Shown here piece after piece: positions 9,755 through 56,137 of a stretch of DNA of 64,000 nucleotides. Location of the stretch: positions 5,559 through 69,558 of the forward strand of contig JAVCCU010000009.1 in NCBI GenBank assembly GCA_030765335.1, in the 5' to 3' direction. Source of the DNA: Candidatus Kaelpia aquatica (GTDB lineage Bacteria > Omnitrophota > Gorgyraeia > Kaelpiales > Kaelpiaceae). The notes under the pieces were generated by a model. It saw nothing but the letters and a program-made list of their open reading frames with translations, was not told where the DNA came from and made no database searches. Each line of letters starts with the position of its first letter. The first letter of the stretch is position 1. Made by a program: the position numbers and the translations under genes.

Positions 9755-10063
9755 CTAAATCTGAGAGAAAATAAACTTGTAATAATCAATTACCACCTTA
9801 AGCGAATGAGCAAAGGCCTTGCCTAAAAAATAACTCAACACAAGAACTATAATTGTAACAATACTTTTACTTCTCCTACTAAATCTAGGATTTAACCATA
9901 GTAGAGGTAACGCAAAAGGCCCAACACAGACAAAAGCTACTATTAAATTAGAGGTCTTAAAAAACCAACTCTCTTTAGTTTTTTTACCTAAAAACTCACC
10001 ACAAAACCGGCATTTTATAGCTTCATCCTGAATCTCTTCAAAACAATAAGGGCATCTCTTCAT
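9755..10063 (-). CDS. zinc-ribbon domain membrane protein
   Basis: 102 aa. N-terminal CPYC...CRFCG zinc ribbon followed by two predicted TM helices. 4-bp overlap with the upstream gene. Confidence 0.5.
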
Positions 10064-10515
10064 TGTTCAACCATATAAACCCTGTCATTCTCGTGCACTT
10101 TCTTTATAACTTTTATTCCAGCCTCTTCCCCTTTATTAGCCTTAGCAACGCTCTTATGGTCAATCTGCATCGATTTAACGGTCTGCTTAAAATCGTCATG
10201 AGCTCCTTTAATATGAATCTTAGCACCTACTTCAAGTGGGGTCTTAAGCTTGATAATTCCAACAGATATTTTACCAAAATAATGTGTTACCCTACCAACC
10301 TCTTTTGGTTTTACCTTTTTTACTGGTTTTACTATCTCAGATTTCTTCCTAACAGCTGCTTTTTTTGTCACCTTTTTAACATTAAGTCTAGCTTTTACTA
10401 GATCACTCTTTTGGGATACTGCTTTTTTATTGGAAACGATTTTCTTCTTCGTGGGTTTAGCCACTACCTTTTTTATTTTTTCAGATTTTGATTTAAAAAT
10501 TCCAAATAACGCCAC
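10060..10515 (-). CDS. lysine-rich (histone-H1-like) protein with C-terminal beta-barrel resembling EF-Tu domain 2
   Basis: 151 aa. The N-terminal ~75 aa are K/A/V-rich low complexity ([20 protein letters not shown]...). The C-terminal ~75 aa are clearly paralogous to ORF 54468..54734 (shared G.VT.YF.K.S...I.L, IKG...DF...V.SMQ..H, DRV). Confidence 0.5.
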
Positions 10516-10535: not shown

Positions 10536-11939
10536 TTAACTCTTAAGATATACGATATCTCCTTTAGCTGGAATCTGGGGGTTTATATTGAGTTTATTTC
10601 TTATATCTGCCCTCAAGCTATCTAGCTGTTCTGCTTCACCATGAACCAGAAAAACCCCTTTAACGTTTTTACTTACCCCTTTAACATAACTCAATAATCC
10701 ATCTCTGTCTGCGTGAGAACTAAAAGCATTGACTGTTATAACTTCTGCATGAAGTTCATATATCCTGCCGAATATGCGCACTGTTTTAGCTTTTTCAACT
10801 ATCCGTTTACCCAAGGTATTATTTGCCATAAAACCGATTACTATTATAGCGTTCTTAGGGTTTTCTATATTATTCTTTAAGTGGTGTAATATTCTTCCGT
10901 TTTCACACATCCCCGATGCTGAGATTAATATTATAGGTTTTGTTATATCATGAATCTGTTTTGACTTACTAACATCCTTAACATAGGTAACATTATCATA
11001 ACCAAAAGGGTCACCGCTATTCAAAAACTCTTTAGCAGTCTTTATGTCAAAATAATCTGCGCTCTCTCTAAATACATCGGTCACATTGACAGCCAAAGGT
11101 CCATCAACATAGATAGGGATCTTTTTAATCTTCTTCTTTCTCATCAACTGACTTATAAAGAAGACTATCAGCTGAGTTCTCTCTAAAGCAAAAGATGGTA
11201 TAATAATCTTGCCGCCCCTCTTTATAGTTTTATTTATAGCATTAGCAAGTTCAATCTCTGCATCCTCTATGCTACTATGTTTTCTATTTCCATAAGTACC
11301 TTCAATCATAAGATAATCCACTTCACTAGGAACCTCAGGGTTTTTAAGTAACGGCATATCGACCCTGCCCAAATCAACTGCATAGGCTATTCTTAAAGGC
11401 CTTCTTCTTGTTTTTACCTCAATCAAAGGTACGGCTGAGCCAAGAATATGACCTGCTTCATAAAAAGTAAGGTTAACATCTTTCGTTAAAGGAAAATTCC
11501 TGTGGTAATTAATGGCTCTTAAGTGCTTTAGTGCTTTTCTTGCCTCTCTCTGGGTATACAGCGGCTCCCTAGGAGGTAATCCGCGTCTTTTGTTTATCTT
11601 ATTAACATACTTAATATCTTCTCCTTGGATATATCCAGAATCTAGGAGCATGAAATGACAGAGTTCCTTTGTAACCGGAGTACAGTAGACTGCCCCCCTA
11701 TAGCCCTGCTTTATAAGATTTGGAATATTACCGCAATGATCTATATGAGCATGAGAGAGAACGCAGGCATCAATATTATTTAGGTTGAAAGCAAACTTAG
11801 AGTTTACCTTGTAATACTCATCTCTCTTTCCATGAAAAAGACCACAGTCAAGGAGTATCTTAGACTTAGAAGTCGATATGAGGTGCATTGAGCCTGTTAC
11901 AGTCTGAGCTCCACCGCAAAACTTAATAGATACAGCCAC
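10536..11939 (-). CDS. MBL-fold metallo-hydrolase, beta-CASP RNA-metabolising family
   Basis: 467 aa. HAHIDHCG (HxHxDH) motif and the beta-CASP layout with C-terminal His motifs. 20-bp gap to the downstream Lys-rich gene. Confidence 0.8.
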   Translation of the reverse strand: MAVSIKFCGGAQTVTGSMHLISTSKSKILLDCGLFHGKRDEYYKVNSKFAFNLNNIDACVLSHAHIDHCGNIPNLIKQGYRGAVYCTPVTKELCHFMLLDSGYIQGEDIKYVNKINKRRGLPPREPLYTQREARKALKHLRAINYHRNFPLTKDVNLTFYEAGHILGSAVPLIEVKTRRRPLRIAYAVDLGRVDMPLLKNPEVPSEVDYLMIEGTYGNRKHSSIEDAEIELANAINKTIKRGGKIIIPSFALERTQLIVFFISQLMRKKKIKKIPIYVDGPLAVNVTDVFRESADYFDIKTAKEFLNSGDPFGYDNVTYVKDVSKSKQIHDITKPIILISASGMCENGRILHHLKNNIENPKNAIIVIGFMANNTLGKRIVEKAKTVRIFGRIYELHAEVITVNAFSSHADRDGLLSYVKGVSKNVKGVFLVHGEAEQLDSLRADIRNKLNINPQIPAKGDIVYLKS

Positions 11940-50423: not shown

Positions 50424-51032
50424 TTAGGATTTCTTCTTTTTAGTATAGATAACATTATCTATTATGCCGTAATCCTTTGCTTCTTCTGCGCTCATAAAAT
50501 AATCTCTATCAGTATCTTTCTTAACTTTATCTATTGATTGAGAAGTATGGAGCGAAATTAACTTATTTATCTCATCTCTTAAGCGAAGTATCTCTTGAGC
50601 CTGAATATGAATATCTTCCGCAGCTCCCTGGACACCGCCCCAAGGCTGATGAATCATTATCCTGGAATGCGGCAAAGAGAACCTCTTTCCCTTAGCACCT
50701 GCCATAAGCAATAATGCCCCCATGCTGGCCGCCTGCCCTACGCAGTAAGTAGAGATATCGGGCTTTACAAATTGCATTGTATCATAGATTGCCAGTCCGC
50801 TCGTAACAGAGCCTCCAGGCGAGTTAATATAAACACTTATATCTTTATCTGCATCCTCAGACTGTAAAAAAAGAACCTGAGCAATGATAAGATTAGCTAC
50901 ATTATCATCGATAGGAGTACCTATAAAAATTATCCTATCTTTTAACAGTCGAGAGTAAATGTCAAATGCACGCTCACCTCTTCCAGTCTTCTCAACTACC
51001 ATGGGAACAAGGGTCTGAAACTTAGCAGGCAT
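50424..51032 (-). CDS. clpP: ATP-dependent Clp protease proteolytic subunit
   Basis: 202 aa. [11 protein letters not shown] (active Ser) and RIMIHQP motifs. Confidence 0.95.
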
Positions 51033-52318
51033 TATTCACCTCCATTTTTAATATTAACTATCTCAGCATGCTGCTTTAAGAATTCTATAACTTTTTTCCT
51101 TAATAAGCTAGCTTTTATATTCTCCAACCCATCGTCTTTTTTAAGATTGGATTCCAATTCCTCCAGAGTACTATTTTGACGCTTAGCTAGGGCCTCTAAA
51201 TGCTCCCTTAACTCTTGATCTGAGATCACTATGCCTTCTTTCTGAGCAATCTCCTTTAAAATAAAATAGACCTTCAGCTCTCTCTGAGCCTCCCTCTGAG
51301 CTTCTTTCAATATCATCTCTTTCTGGGTCTCTATATCTTTCTTAGGAAACCCTCTATAGAGCAATCTCATTGCTATATCTTCAGCCGAAACATCCACCTG
51401 ACGGCTTAGAAGCTGAGGCGGCAACTCCATTTTGGAATTTTCGATAAGCTCAGATATAAGATTTTCCTCTAAGTCGACTTCAGCCTCTCTAGTGCGATGG
51501 TTTTGCAGCTCCTCTCTTATAACCTTCTTTAAATCATCGATATTACTATGATTACCGAACTCTTTTGCAAAATCATCATTAAGCTCTGGTTCTTTTTTCT
51601 CCTTAACCCCTTTTACATTGATCTTAAAATCGCACTCCTTTCCAGCAATCTTTTTATCTCTATAATCATCAGGCACATTGAGCTTAAACTCTTTGATCTC
51701 GCCAGAACTTAACCCTTTAAGATTATCCAGAAGCTCAGGAAAGAGATTCTCTTCATTAAGGTATAACGAAAGGGCCTCTTTTTTATCTAAATCACTATCT
51801 TTTGGCTTCATCTCTACGTCTGCTACGACAACATCTTCGAGAGCAGACGGCCTTTGAACATCCAGCCACTGAGTCTTCTCTCTCTTAATATCATCTAAAA
51901 CCTTATTAATATCTTTGTCCTCTACGCTTGTATCTTTTTTATTCAATTTTATATTCTTATATTTCGACAACTTAACTTTTGGAGCCTCTTCTATCTTCAG
52001 CGTAAACTTATACTCACCCTTCTTTCCCTGTTCAACGCTAAGCAATGCTGGGGCCGATATTGGATTCACCCCTGAAGCCTCCATAGCCTTTCTATAAAAA
52101 AGAGAGACTACGCTCTCTTCGATATCTTTTTCAATCTCAACGCTATGCTTGGCCAGCACCATCTCTAGCGGAGCCTTACCTTTTCTATAACCAGGAATTG
52201 CAACTTTATTTTGCCAGTCAGATTCTACTCTCTTTCTTAAAGCCCCAACTTCTTTAGGATCCAAGTAGACCTCTAAATCGCTCTCAACCGTAGTAATTCT
52301 TTTAATCTTTATCTTCAT
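51032..52318 (-). CDS. tig: trigger factor
   Basis: 428 aa. Immediately precedes clpP. Internal PPIase-like domain. Confidence 0.9.
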
Positions 52319-52628
52319 TTTTAAAATCCTTATCCTTATGCCTATGCATTTTTATTCTATCTTCATACCTTAAGACCTGCTGTTTTAAAACATCAAACGA
52401 TTCATCAACAGCTAAATACATGTCTTCATTTTTTTCCTTAACCTTAAAGTGGGCCTTCTTGAGATCCATATTGACCTCGACAGCAGAGAGATGCTTTTCA
52501 ATCTCTAATACCACGTGGACATTTATTATATCATCAACATATTTATCTAAATAGTCGATCTTGCCCTCAATGTAAGACCTTAAAGCATCAGTTATATCAA
52601 AATGTCTACCTGTTATTGTTGTTTTCAA
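52302..52628 (-). CDS. hpf: ribosome hibernation promoting factor / RaiA (short form)
   Basis: 108 aa. ITGRHFDITDALRSYIEGKI and LEIEKHLSAVEVN... typical of HPF/YfiA. Confidence 0.8.
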   Translation of the reverse strand: MKTTITGRHFDITDALRSYIEGKIDYLDKYVDDIINVHVVLEIEKHLSAVEVNMDLKKAHFKVKEKNEDMYLAVDESFDVLKQQVLRYEDRIKMHRHKDKDFKNEDKD

Positions 52629-52648
52629 ACTATACCCCCTTTAATTTT

Positions 52649-53365
52649 TTACATCTTAAACCTTTCTCCAAGGTAGACTTTTTTTGCTTTATCATCGTTA
52701 ATCAAATGATCTGCATCACCTGAAAGGAGAACACTGCCTTCAGAGACTATGTAAGCCCTGTCCGTTATCGCTAAAGTCTCTCTTACATTGTGGTCGGTCA
52801 GTAATATTCCAATACCTTTACTCTTAAGATCTAAAATTATATCCTGACATTCAGCAACAGCTATAGGATCTATTCCGCTAAAAGGTTCGTCTAAGAGCAA
52901 GAACAATGGATTTATAGCCAAGGCTCTTGTAATCTCTAGCCGCCTCCTTTCACCGCCAGATAAAGTATAGGCCTTGCTCTTAGCTAAATATGATATCCTT
53001 AACTCTTCTAACAACATCTCAAGTCTCAGCTTTCTCTCCTGCGGATGGATGCTTAAAGTCTCCAGCACCGCCATTATATTATCCTTAACACTTAAGTTTC
53101 CAAATATAGCCGGCTCCTGTGAAAGATAACCTATCCCTAAGCTTGCTCTTTTATGCATAGGCAGCTTTGTTATATCAACATCTTTAAAGTATACGCTCCC
53201 CTTATTAGGAGCAATTAAACCTACGATCATATAAAAAGTTGTGGTCTTACCAGCTCCGTTAGGACCTAGCAGCCCGACTATCTCAGAGCCGGCTACATCA
53301 AGTGAGATACCATTTACCACTCTTCTGTTCTTGTACTCTTTTATTAAACCTTTGACCTTTAGCAT
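52649..53365 (-). CDS. lptB: LPS export ABC transporter ATP-binding protein
   Basis: 238 aa. Walker A GPNGAGKTT, signature LSGGERRRLEI, Walker B LLLDEP. Confidence 0.9.
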   Translation of the reverse strand: MLKVKGLIKEYKNRRVVNGISLDVAGSEIVGLLGPNGAGKTTTFYMIVGLIAPNKGSVYFKDVDITKLPMHKRASLGIGYLSQEPAIFGNLSVKDNIMAVLETLSIHPQERKLRLEMLLEELRISYLAKSKAYTLSGGERRRLEITRALAINPLFLLLDEPFSGIDPIAVAECQDIILDLKSKGIGILLTDHNVRETLAITDRAYIVSEGSVLLSGDADHLINDDKAKKVYLGERFKM

Positions 53366-53368
53366 GTT

Positions 53369-54169
53369 TTACTCAGGATATATCTCAAGCTTAGGGCGCC
53401 CAAGAAGATTAACCTTTCCCTCTTTTAAGTCATATATCGCCTCAGAAGAATAGGTTAGTGAATTGCCGCGTCTAAGTTTAACATTGCCTTTGGCATGAGC
53501 CCTGCTAATACCCTTCTCGTCTTTATTGAAATAGATGATCAGCTTATCGCAGAATAGCTCTCCTCTCCTATCTAAAACGTGAACGTTATCGCTGAAAACA
53601 GCTATATTTTCGGTGTAATCTATATCTAAAGGACCGTCAGATTTAATTATAATCTGAGGCACAGTTTTAAATTTAACATCTTTTTTAATAACCGCTTTAG
53701 TTAATTTTGTATCAACCTCACCGCCTTCACCTGATATCTCGCTATCGTTTTTCACTATTCTCAACCTATCTTCTGTCCAGATAACATCTCTATCCTGATC
53801 CCATCGTAATATATCTGTAAAAAGTGTATCTCCTTCTAAGTTTTTTACAACAACACTGCCTGTCAATACTACCTGCCTATTCACTTTATTCAAAAAACCT
53901 TTGTCTGCCCGCATATCTACGGGGCCGTTATCGCTATAAAGCCTTGCCTTAATCGACTCCAGAGCTACATCATCCTTGCTTAACTGTGCACTCTCTCCTT
54001 CCACTTCCCATTTTTTGTTATTCTGCTTGTCATAGCCTGCTAGAGTAAAATCATTTAAGCTCTCCTCTAACGCATAGGAGCTCCTAGTAAAAAATACCAA
54101 CAATAAGACTGCAGTTTTTATTAACATTTTAAACCCGCCTATCCTAGCATGGCAACAGGGCCAAGTCAA
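53369..54169 (-). CDS. lptA: LptA/OstA-family periplasmic protein (true start probably at the internal Met, 54127)
   Basis: Signal peptide beginning MLIKTAVLLLVFF. Beta-jellyroll-like repeats. Immediately upstream of lptB. Confidence 0.55.
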   Translation of the reverse strand: MTWPCCHARIGGFKMLIKTAVLLLVFFTRSSYALEESLNDFTLAGYDKQNNKKWEVEGESAQLSKDDVALESIKARLYSDNGPVDMRADKGFLNKVNRQVVLTGSVVVKNLEGDTLFTDILRWDQDRDVIWTEDRLRIVKNDSEISGEGGEVDTKLTKAVIKKDVKFKTVPQIIIKSDGPLDIDYTENIAVFSDNVHVLDRRGELFCDKLIIYFNKDEKGISRAHAKGNVKLRRGNSLTYSSEAIYDLKEGKVNLLGRPKLEIYPE

Positions 54170-54212: not shown

Positions 54213-54443
54213 CTAATCCAATATCAGATTGGTAATTGTCTTAGTAATACCATTTATTGCACGCAGCTCTGTTACAACGAACCTCATCAGCTCTTCGTAA
54301 TTAGAAGCTTTGATCTGGGCTATAACATCCTGCTCGCCAGAGGTTAGGTCTACATCGACTACGTTTTCAAAAGACTTCATTTTTTGGATAACTTCTTTTT
54401 CTTCACCCGGCTCTACGTTAATTTTCAAATAAGCTCTGGCCAT
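54213..54443 (-). CDS. stand-alone AsnC/Lrp C-terminal (RAM) domain protein
   Basis: 76 aa. Matches the AsnC_trans_reg ligand-binding domain pattern (AYLKINVEPG...VVDVDLTSGEQDVIAQIKASNYEEL.RFV...LRAINGI..T.T.LIL). No HTH domain present. Confidence 0.6.
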   Translation of the reverse strand: MARAYLKINVEPGEEKEVIQKMKSFENVVDVDLTSGEQDVIAQIKASNYEELMRFVVTELRAINGITKTITNLILD

Positions 54444-54467
54444 CTCTCTCTCCTTTTTTAGTTCAAG

Positions 54468-54734
54468 CTAATCTCTTCTCAATTTAAAGACCCTGTCATG
54501 CAAACGAACCCGCTCTTTAACTCCTAGGCCTACAATCTGCCCCGGCAAGATCTCACTGACAATCTGATGTTCAACCTGCATAGAGTTCACATCCATCTCA
54601 AAATCGGTTGTATGACCTTTTATTTTAATCCTATCACCAGACTTCAAGCTTTTAGCTGTAATCTCTATAATAGCAGCAGAAGGTTTTGCATAAAAATTTG
54701 TAATGATACCTATCTCGATCCATTCTTCAGGCAT
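54468..54734 (-). CDS. small beta-barrel protein resembling EF-Tu domain 2 (paralog of the C-terminus of ORF 10060..10515)
   Basis: 88 aa. Aligns along its length with residues ~75-151 of the lysine-rich protein. Confidence 0.45.
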   Translation of the reverse strand: MPEEWIEIGIITNFYAKPSAAIIEITAKSLKSGDRIKIKGHTTDFEMDVNSMQVEHQIVSEILPGQIVGLGVKERVRLHDRVFKLRRD

Positions 54735-54761
54735 AAGCTCACCTCCTTAAAAGATACTTTT

Positions 54762-55859
54762 TCAAAGATAGCTAAGACCTTCACTAAGAGCAGAGGTTAT
54801 TAAAGCTTTATCTACTAGAGAAGATACTGCCACCAAACCTATGGAACTTGGCAATACAAATCTTAAGGTTCCAAATTTAGCTTTTTTATCATAAAGAATG
54901 CTACTCAAAATTTTTTCCTGCTCCATCTTTCTGTTCATCTTGGGCAAAGTCTTAAACTTCAAGATTAAATTTATTATTCTCTTTAAATCATTTTCTTTCA
55001 AAACCCCAAGCTTATTAGCAATCAAACTCTCAACAACGAGACCAAAAGATACCGCCTCCCCATGAGATACTCTCTTATACTCAGAGACTGTCTCTATAGC
55101 ATGGGCTATTGTATGGCCTAAGTTTAAGGCTATCCTTATATCCTCACTGTCATACTCGTCTCTTTCGACAAACGACGTCTTTATTCTGCTGCATCTTAAA
55201 ACTATCTCACCCCATAAGCCCAGCGAGAAAGAAGATGGGTCTTCATTGCTAGACTCTAATAATTCAAAGAGCTCTACATCTCCCAAGATTCCATATTTTA
55301 TAATCTCGGATAACCCATTGGAGAATTCTTTAAGAGGCAGGCTCTTTAAGAAATTCAAATCGGATACAACCAGTTTAGGCTGGTAGAAAGCTCCCAGCAG
55401 ATTCTTACCCCATTTTAAATCTATCGCAACTTTCCCGCCAATACTCGAATCGACTTGAGCAAGAAGAGTAGTCGGGATCTGGATGAAAGGCACGCCTCTC
55501 TTGTAAATAGCCGCTAAAAATCCTACCAGGTCACCAACAACTCCTCCTCCAAAAGCTATAAAGAGTACGCTCTCAGCCTTAGAAAACTCAACCGTTGATC
55601 TTAGAAGGTCAAAAAGAACCTGCCAAGACTTACTCTTCTCAGAGTCCGCAACTTCCAAGAAAAGGCTCTCTTTGAATACCTCTAAATAAGGCTCTAAGTA
55701 ACCCTTATAAAGAGAGTATATATTTCTATTGGATACCACAACTGCTAAGTGCTTCTCTAGGTTTAACCTTACAATTTCATCTTTCAGAGATGAGAGCGCT
55801 CCCTCTGAAATCAGAATATCATAAGACCTACCCTGTAAATCTAGGTTTATTCTCTCCAT
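54762..55859 (-). CDS. aroB: 3-dehydroquinate synthase
   Basis: 365 aa. Gly-rich NAD motif (FGGGVVGDLVGF) and His metal-binding motifs (HTIAHAIE). Confidence 0.9.
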   Translation of the reverse strand: MERINLDLQGRSYDILISEGALSSLKDEIVRLNLEKHLAVVVSNRNIYSLYKGYLEPYLEVFKESLFLEVADSEKSKSWQVLFDLLRSTVEFSKAESVLFIAFGGGVVGDLVGFLAAIYKRGVPFIQIPTTLLAQVDSSIGGKVAIDLKWGKNLLGAFYQPKLVVSDLNFLKSLPLKEFSNGLSEIIKYGILGDVELFELLESSNEDPSSFSLGLWGEIVLRCSRIKTSFVERDEYDSEDIRIALNLGHTIAHAIETVSEYKRVSHGEAVSFGLVVESLIANKLGVLKENDLKRIINLILKFKTLPKMNRKMEQEKILSSILYDKKAKFGTLRFVLPSSIGLVAVSSLVDKALITSALSEGLSYL

Positions 55860-55876
55860 TAAAAATATAGACCCGT

Positions 55877-56137
55877 TTAAGACTTTTCTTTAACAGAACC
55901 ATCTGCAGGATTATCAGTCTTGCCTTCTGCTGCCTGACCTGCACCCTCAAGTTCTTCTTTCTTAGGCTCTTTCTTAAGAGCCTTCAACCTCGTTCTTTTG
56001 TACTTAGGCAGCTTAAATACTTCTAACCCTTCTTCTCCGGACTTCTTTAAAAACATAGCTATCCTCTCAAACCTTTTGAGTACATTTCTATGCTGTAAAT
56101 CCGAATCTTTAATCTTTAAGCTTGGATGTCTTGACAT
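55877..56137 (-). CDS. hypothetical small charged protein
   Basis: 86 aa, Lys/Glu-rich. Its stop abuts the aroB region. No motif recognised. Confidence 0.3.
   Translation of the reverse strand: MSRHPSLKIKDSDLQHRNVLKRFERIAMFLKKSGEEGLEVFKLPKYKRTRLKALKKEPKKEELEGAGQAAEGKTDNPADGSVKEKS

Follow-up and report, generated by a model that had tools for sequence, protein, structure and literature searches.

The 64,000-nucleotide stretch of the Candidatus Kaelpia aquatica genome analysed here (Omnitrophota; contig JAVCCU010000009.1, positions 5,559 to 69,558; hereafter the window) carries on its minus strand two adjoining small genes, which an original prediction made from the DNA letters had described as a small-ligand sensor paired with a translation-factor-like barrel. 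The barrel gene (54468..54734) encodes an 88-amino-acid (aa) stand-alone beta-barrel of the kind seen in domain II of translational GTPases and in the C-terminal domain of U32 peptidases (U32_C). The RAM gene (54213..54443) encodes a 76-aa stand-alone ligand-binding (RAM) domain of the Lrp/AsnC type, without a helix-turn-helix (HTH). Immediately 5′ of the barrel gene lies aroB (54762..55859, minus strand; 3-dehydroquinate synthase; PF01761, 2e-40; PF24621, 1e-36), and 3′ of the RAM gene lies a fused LptC plus LptA/OstA-like gene (53369..54169, minus strand; lptC/A below). These Pfam assignments bear out the placement of the pair between aroB and an lptA-like gene, and the order along the minus strand is aroB, barrel, RAM, lptC/A, lptB, hpf and tig. 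The entire window contains a single RAM gene and just two barrel genes, the second of which is a longer paralog (10060..10515), and all three open reading frames (ORFs) were found at these coordinates on the minus strand.

The spacing of the genes is tight, with 27 nt between the aroB stop and the barrel gene and 24 nt between the barrel stop and the RAM gene. Each small gene has its own Shine-Dalgarno (SD) sequence, read off the minus strand: AAGGAGG (54742..54748) 7 nt 5′ of the barrel ATG, and AAGGAGAG (54448..54455) 4 nt 5′ of the RAM ATG. No terminator-like site was found between aroB and the lptC/A gene, the aroB-barrel-RAM stretch included, and in Ca. Kaelpia aquatica the aroB, barrel and RAM genes probably share one transcript. 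The aroB-(yjbQ)-barrel order is retained in relatives. Both the barrel ORF and the RAM ORF are genuine small genes, each translated on its own.

In a BLASTP comparison of the two barrel copies (E=4e-15), the 88-aa protein pairs with residues 72-147 of the 151-aa paralog, with 36% identity across 77 residues. This E value is far past the limit of E>0.01 set beforehand for refuting the relationship, and on sequence grounds ORF 10060..10515 carries in its C-terminal half a clear paralog of the 88-aa protein. Three motifs had been quoted as shared by the two copies. One of them, IKGxxxDFxxxVxSMQxxH, is exact in both, but the other two are only approximate: the first reads GIITNFYAKPS in one copy and the C-terminal motif differs in spacing. 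In an alignment of 27 barrel homologs (A1), which also served as input for AlphaFold2 and for the family profile, the conserved motif extends to IKIKGHTTDFxQxVxSMQVEH, and the invariant residues are G9, K17, G33, I36, G40, D44, F45, S51, Q53, G65 and D80. The 88-aa copy has about six residues ahead of the barrel and no tail, and its isoelectric point (pI) is 6.8.

AlphaFold2 run on A1 gave an all-beta model of the 88-aa barrel with a mean predicted local distance difference test (pLDDT) score of 92. The predicted structure is a closed all-beta barrel of domain II topology, and it matches the solved U32 C-terminal domain (PF16325; PDB 4HE6). Every one of the 27 A1 members matched PF03144 at E<=1 (best 2.6e-11), 21 of the 27 matched EF-G_D2 and two matched Peptidase_U32_C weakly, while the family profile matched PDB sequences of EF-1alpha (8e-4) and EF-Tu (0.004-0.01). 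Because of these PF03144 and PDB matches and the predicted structure, the earlier label of an EF-Tu-D2-like barrel is right for fold and superfamily. It does not extend to family membership by the usual cut-off, as the PF03144 scores of the two window proteins (17.4 bits for the 88-aa protein, 15.0 bits for the paralog) fall below the Pfam threshold of 30.3. No NCBIfam model matches the barrel, the window barrel proteins have no match to PF16325 at E<=10 and no U32 catalytic domain, and no G domain lies in frame with or adjoining either barrel protein (the 88-aa protein or the 151-aa tail plus barrel). The protein, labelled 'translation elongation factor-like protein' by NCBI's automatic naming, is outside every curated family.

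Of the known systems set beside the barrel, one is domain II of the translational GTPases (EF-Tu, EF-1alpha, IF2/eIF5B and SelB; PF03144), with which the barrel shares a homologous fold and detectable sequence similarity; its conserved hairpin aligns to the EF-Tu strand that carries Glu271, His273 and Arg274 (Thermus aquaticus numbering). It differs from them in having neither G domain nor domain III, in scoring below the Pfam cut-off and in carrying an invariant Gln in place of Glu271. The likeness to the U32 C-terminal domain is seen in predicted structure, but the window proteins have no profile match and no attachment to a U32 peptidase. The closest and sole characterised analogue of the family is Pbp11 of Pyrococcus abyssi (Q9UZY3; PDB 7ANU), which binds tRNA through a flexible N-terminal tail, also binds PAN, and was described as a Thermococcales-specific orphan by authors who asked whether such proteins are more widespread (PMC9540759). 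The window barrel is likewise stand-alone, domain-II-like and about 90 aa long. However, its relation to Pbp11 in sequence is borderline (E=0.03 and 17.6 bits when the 7anu sequence is compared with the family profile); the partner of Pbp11, the archaeal PAN-proteasome, is missing from bacteria; the 88-aa copy is tail-less, with a 70-aa disordered basic tail found on the window paralog instead; and the GHTTDF...SMQxEH motif, defined here from A1, is not described in the Pbp11 paper (PMC9540759). The barrel is a variant distinct from Pbp11, EF-Tu domain II and U32_C, with its own invariant hairpin, a free-standing form, and fusions to polybasic tails and TIR domains.

The paralog shows the tailed form. 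Its barrel domain (residues ~71-151; 10060..10305, minus strand) scores 111 bits against the family hidden Markov model (HMM) and is modelled by AlphaFold2 with a pLDDT of 93-96 over residues 70-150. The Lys-rich N-terminal tail (residues 1-70; 10306..10515, minus strand) is 36% K+R with a pI of 11, and its residues 1-60 are predicted to be disordered (no secondary structure, pLDDT about 50). It opens with a conserved M-x-L-F-x-x-F-K, part of a segment MxLFxxFKxLF (10470..10515) conserved in 26 homologs (alignment A4), after which the polybasic linker of this tailed subfamily varies from ~30 to 110 aa. The paralog has 198 homologs at E<=1e-5, and those with a source name are all from Omnitrophota.

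The context of the paralog is not conserved: neither window neighbour is kept in three relatives, whose paralog neighbours are thyX, a DbpA-type DEAD helicase, and radical-SAM or PLD genes. Two of the three have thyX upstream and the DbpA-type DEAD-box helicase downstream. In the window itself, a beta-CASP/RMMBL metallo-beta-lactamase RNase-like gene (10536..11939) lies 20 nt 5′ of the paralog, and the end of the paralog runs, in an ATGA overlap, into the gene (9755..10063) for a seemingly membrane-spanning zinc-ribbon protein of 102 aa.

The 76-aa protein was confirmed as a RAM domain only. It matches PF01037 over residues 7-75 (E=5.3e-13, 49.1 bits against a cut-off of 25), the solved stand-alone 83-aa RAM protein 2zbc end to end (E=1.4e-8), and 2e1a and 2cvi over its full length (E about 1e-4). 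There is no room for an HTH, because the open frame extends only 8 codons 5′ of the ATG; no HTH family matched the 76-aa protein, and NCBIfam Lrp models cover it by their C-terminal halves only, with scores far below the equivalog cut-offs. The G-x-x-D segment aligns as SGEQD in the 76-aa protein against YGVYD in 2zbc, an alignment consistent with predicted ligand binding. The protein is acidic (pI 4.8), and its orthologs form 22 clusters at 64-100% identity, all of 76 aa, plus two clusters at 46-47%.

Archaeal stand-alone RAM proteins (DM1-3, STS042 and TvDM) bind Ile, Val, Leu, Met, Phe or Gln, switch between dimer and octamer, and can form hetero-octamers with full-length Lrp proteins, although their physiological role is still called unclear (PMC2995911). 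The 76-aa protein is of the same size as these proteins (Pyrococcus horikoshii DM1-DM3, Sulfolobus tokodaii STS042; 2ZBC, 2E1A, 2CVI) and is likewise made of PF01037 only, in contrast to full-length Lrp/AsnC regulators, which have an N-terminal winged-helix HTH. It differs from the archaeal examples in coming from bacteria (Omnitrophota), in being limited to a small clade and in adjoining a barrel gene, an arrangement not on record for them. The protein is of a known and ordinary kind, unusual only in its bacterial source and narrow distribution.

The barrel belongs to a far larger group. When 1.84 billion cluster representatives were searched exhaustively with a profile, 3,536 proteins matched at E<=1e-3 and 2,248 at E<=1e-10, and a scan of one genome per species for the IKGHTTDF motif gave 546 confirmed loci. 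Bacterial loci fall in Omnitrophota, Thermodesulfobacteriota, Zixibacteria, Ignavibacteria, Aminicenantes, Planctomycetota and Nitrospinae, and archaeal loci in Woesearchaeota, Nanoarchaeota and Methanosarcinales. The idea of an uncharacterised small-protein family therefore stands as to "uncharacterised", but not as to small or unnoticed, given thousands of clusters and an existing NCBI name. A literature search returned nothing relevant on the prokaryotic 'translation elongation factor-like protein', nor on the function of U32_C.

When architectures were classified on the 150 best family representatives, 56 had a basic N-terminal tail (median 63 aa, median 41% K+R), 49 were stand-alone barrels (median pI 6.2), 27 had another N-terminal extension, 12 had two or three barrels and six had a C-terminal extension. 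Since basic tails recur in this way, the Lys-rich paralog represents a standard family architecture, and its lysine-rich tail is no peculiarity of this genome. Several of the multi-barrel proteins consist of a TIR_2 domain and two barrels; five such proteins from outside the window (P0038, P0040, P0041, P0042 and P0123) have TIR_2 fused to two tandem barrels, and the second barrel of P0123 scores above the Peptidase_U32_C gathering score. PADLOC matches the TIR-barrel-barrel proteins by the TIR domain alone, and they may therefore represent an undescribed TIR effector or sensor architecture. For the window proteins themselves, a phage or defence origin was rejected: tblastn gave no match in 50,697 phage records, and PADLOC gave no match for the window barrel and RAM proteins.

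Pairing with a RAM gene was judged on the 80 best species-level barrel loci, with RAM ORFs sought by phmmer and by an HMM of the RAM proteins of the clade (E<=10). A RAM gene lies 3′ of the barrel gene in seven of the 80 loci (L009-L015), which are the closest relatives of the window locus (70-89% barrel identity); no RAM ORF was detected by either search in the remaining 73. The seven loci share the block orf252-SPOR-orf86-(SH3)-aroB-(yjbQ)-barrel-RAM-(endonuclease V)-lptC/A-lptB-hpf-tig, and because RAM-bearing loci have about 10 genes of synteny in common, the adjacency is explicable by common descent. In the next relatives (58-60% identity) the order is aroB-...-barrel-GNAT, with a GNAT gene in the place of RAM, and at ~50% identity the neighbours are unrelated. 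Co-occurrence across genomes, proposed at the outset as a check on a sensor-and-barrel system, thus finds the RAM neighbour in one narrow syntenic clade, always beside a barrel at least 70% identical to that of the window, and there is weak support for the claimed pairing of barrel and RAM sensor. On present evidence, the adjacency is a lineage-specific operon arrangement rather than a dedicated two-component device.

Nor did a Pfam scan of the same-strand neighbours of the 80 loci find a consistent barrel partner. A conserved operon partner across phyla was rejected, the neighbours being mixed (PorV/UPF0164, YjbQ, CutA1, NUDIX, DUF763, ABC ATPases and, twice, MnmA). The most recurrent non-RAM neighbour among the loci scanned is DUF763, downstream of the barrel in five loci and upstream in one; these loci include L063, L064, L080 and L084, from Thermodesulfobacteriota or 'delta proteobacterium' metagenome-assembled genomes, and the association may be lineage-specific.

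Taken together, these results somewhat favour, by a little over even chances, a joint reading in which the co-transcribed genes encode a barrel that binds RNA or the translation apparatus and a RAM sensor, the two being lineage-specific neighbours and not a dedicated pair. By analogy with its relatives, binding of RNA or of the translation machinery is the likeliest function of the barrel and our best guess. The barrel would act as a binding module, for example at the tRNA 3′ end or on the ribosome; where a paralog is tailed, its polybasic stretch would contribute further, non-specific affinity, as the flexible tail at the N-terminus of archaeal Pbp11 does. Polybasic disordered tails are typical nucleic-acid-binding appendages. 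The RAM protein, again by analogy, is probably an oligomeric amino-acid sensor: like DM1 and STS042, it would assemble into dimers or larger oligomers whose subunit interfaces hold an amino acid or a related metabolite, and these oligomers would act through protein-protein contacts.

The alignment of the family profile to EF-Tu offers a more local indication for the barrel. In this marginal alignment (E about 0.008), S51-M52-Q53-V54-E55-H56 lies over G269-V270-E271-M272-H273-R274 of T. aquaticus EF-Tu, and G40-HTTDF45 over G257-LAPET262. H273 and R274 line the aminoacyl pocket of T. aquaticus EF-Tu, and the strand around E271, the equivalent of E259 in the Escherichia coli protein, is reported by Nissen et al. 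to bind the aminoacyl-A76 end. As far as a marginal alignment can indicate, the conservation of the family would therefore be concentrated where EF-Tu holds that end. E259 of E. coli EF-Tu contacts the tRNA end (PMC9540759, citing Nissen et al.).

Several observations weigh against this joint reading. The mapping of residues onto EF-Tu comes from a marginal alignment (E about 0.008), in which the key Glu271 falls on an invariant Gln of the barrel family. With a pI of 6.8 for the window copy and a median of 6.2 for stand-alone members, it is not evident that the barrel on its own would bind RNA generically. RNA-related neighbours are scattered (MnmA twice; RtcB, RNase III and deoxyhypusine synthase once each), and because neighbours are heterogeneous across phyla, context does not confirm a translation role. 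The hydrophobic N-terminus of the Omnitrophota tailed subfamily could target the membrane instead, and the barrel family is experimentally uncharacterised. As to the separateness of the two genes, the barrel-RAM pair persists whether yjbQ is present or absent and whether endonuclease V is inserted or not, and it also occurs in L093, whose downstream block is replaced. Persistence of the pair despite changing flanks means that a real coupling could exist, and a genuine physical or functional coupling of barrel and RAM, though unlikely in our estimate, is not negligible.

Window positions 54734..56137 were compared with L001, L006, L011-L014 and L093. Both the window and its closest relative, L009, are without yjbQ (UPF0047, between aroB and the barrel gene) and without the SH3_3-domain gene (between the 55877..56137 ORF and aroB), unlike other clade members. 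In several relatives the endonuclease V gene is on the opposite strand, inserted 3′ of the RAM gene.

The strongest form of such a coupling would be a dedicated barrel-RAM complex, in which an amino acid bound to the RAM oligomer controls the barrel, for example its access to tRNA or the ribosome. If true, amino-acid supply would be coupled to translation or to the adjoining aroB and shikimate pathway. The tight spacing of the two genes on one strand, each with its own SD, fits this proposal, as do the retention of the pair in every clade member examined despite upstream and downstream changes, the distribution of RAM orthologs, which is as narrow as that of the barrel subclade, and the combination of an acidic RAM protein (pI 4.8) with a near-neutral barrel. 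Against these stand the lack of the pairing in 73 of the 80 best loci and in every relative at <=60% identity, the ~10-gene synteny of the clade, so that co-inheritance explains the adjacency, the absence of any barrel-RAM fusion among the 150 top family representatives, and a 46%-identical RAM homolog with no adjoining barrel. We consider a dedicated complex improbable but not negligible.

We are similarly doubtful of a second alternative, in which the barrel is a protein-protein adaptor or small-ligand module and the tailed paralogs are tethered to anionic membrane by MxLFxxFKxLF and the polybasic linker. That segment with its linker resembles a membrane-targeting helix followed by a polybasic patch, and an amphipathic-looking conserved N-terminus does precede the polybasic region in the Omnitrophota tailed subfamily; but AlphaFold2 gives no helix for it (pLDDT about 54), and most tailed members of other phyla begin with MAKKK-type tails that have no hydrophobic segment. 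The mild acidity of stand-alone barrels, the binding of Pbp11 to PAN as a protein partner and the translational coupling (ATGA) of the window paralog to a zinc-ribbon protein with a membrane-spanning look are in keeping with an adaptor, and the TIR-barrel-barrel fusions suggest the barrel as a possible sensor or recognition domain. By contrast, among characterised homologous domains the nearest, EF-Tu/IF2 domain II and Pbp11, contact RNA.

Less probable still, though conceivable, is a more general scheme in which these proteins are widespread free 'domain II' factors that dock on tRNA 3′ ends or the ribosomal GTPase site and are gated by RAM in the Kaelpia/Saelkia clade. Polybasic tails or TIR domains would then be add-ons, and RAM gating would form a direct small-protein link from amino-acid supply to translation. 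Finally, that one small ORF or both are spurious, or are left over from a larger degraded gene (for example a broken translation factor or a truncated Lrp regulator), is next to impossible and was rejected: both are short and the 88-aa protein scores under the PF03144 cut-off, but the data effectively refute degradation, with full-length conservation across many genomes, invariant motifs and constant lengths (84-93 aa for the barrel, 76 aa for RAM), a strong SD for each gene, high AlphaFold2 confidence, and no in-frame G-domain or HTH remnant in the flanks.

Taken alone, the gene pair is a lineage-specific detail, and the value of the finding lies in pointing to a very large unstudied barrel family, which is among the larger protein families without a Pfam model of their own. 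If the family binds tRNA or ribosomes, small translation-associated factors of a common but overlooked type would be added to those known, and the TIR fusions would point to a sensing role in defence biology too.

The genes around the pair show further features. The 266-aa ORF at 53369..54169 joins LptC, at residues 38-166, to an OstA-like domain of LptA/LptD_N type, at residues 181-261, a fusion that recurs in relatives; its listed TTG start is probably too far 5′, and an internal ATG near 54127 opens a signal-anchor-like MLIKTAVLLLVFF. Within 51032..53365 (minus strand), hpf (Ribosomal_S30AE) directly follows lptB with no rpoN in between, the hpf and trigger-factor genes overlap by 17 nt (52302..52318), and the clade keeps the order lptB-hpf-tig-clpP. 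Upstream, 3′ of a SPOR-domain gene, an 86-aa Lys/Glu-rich ORF (55877..56137, minus strand) has no Pfam match and is kept at the equivalent position in relatives at 50-86% identity.
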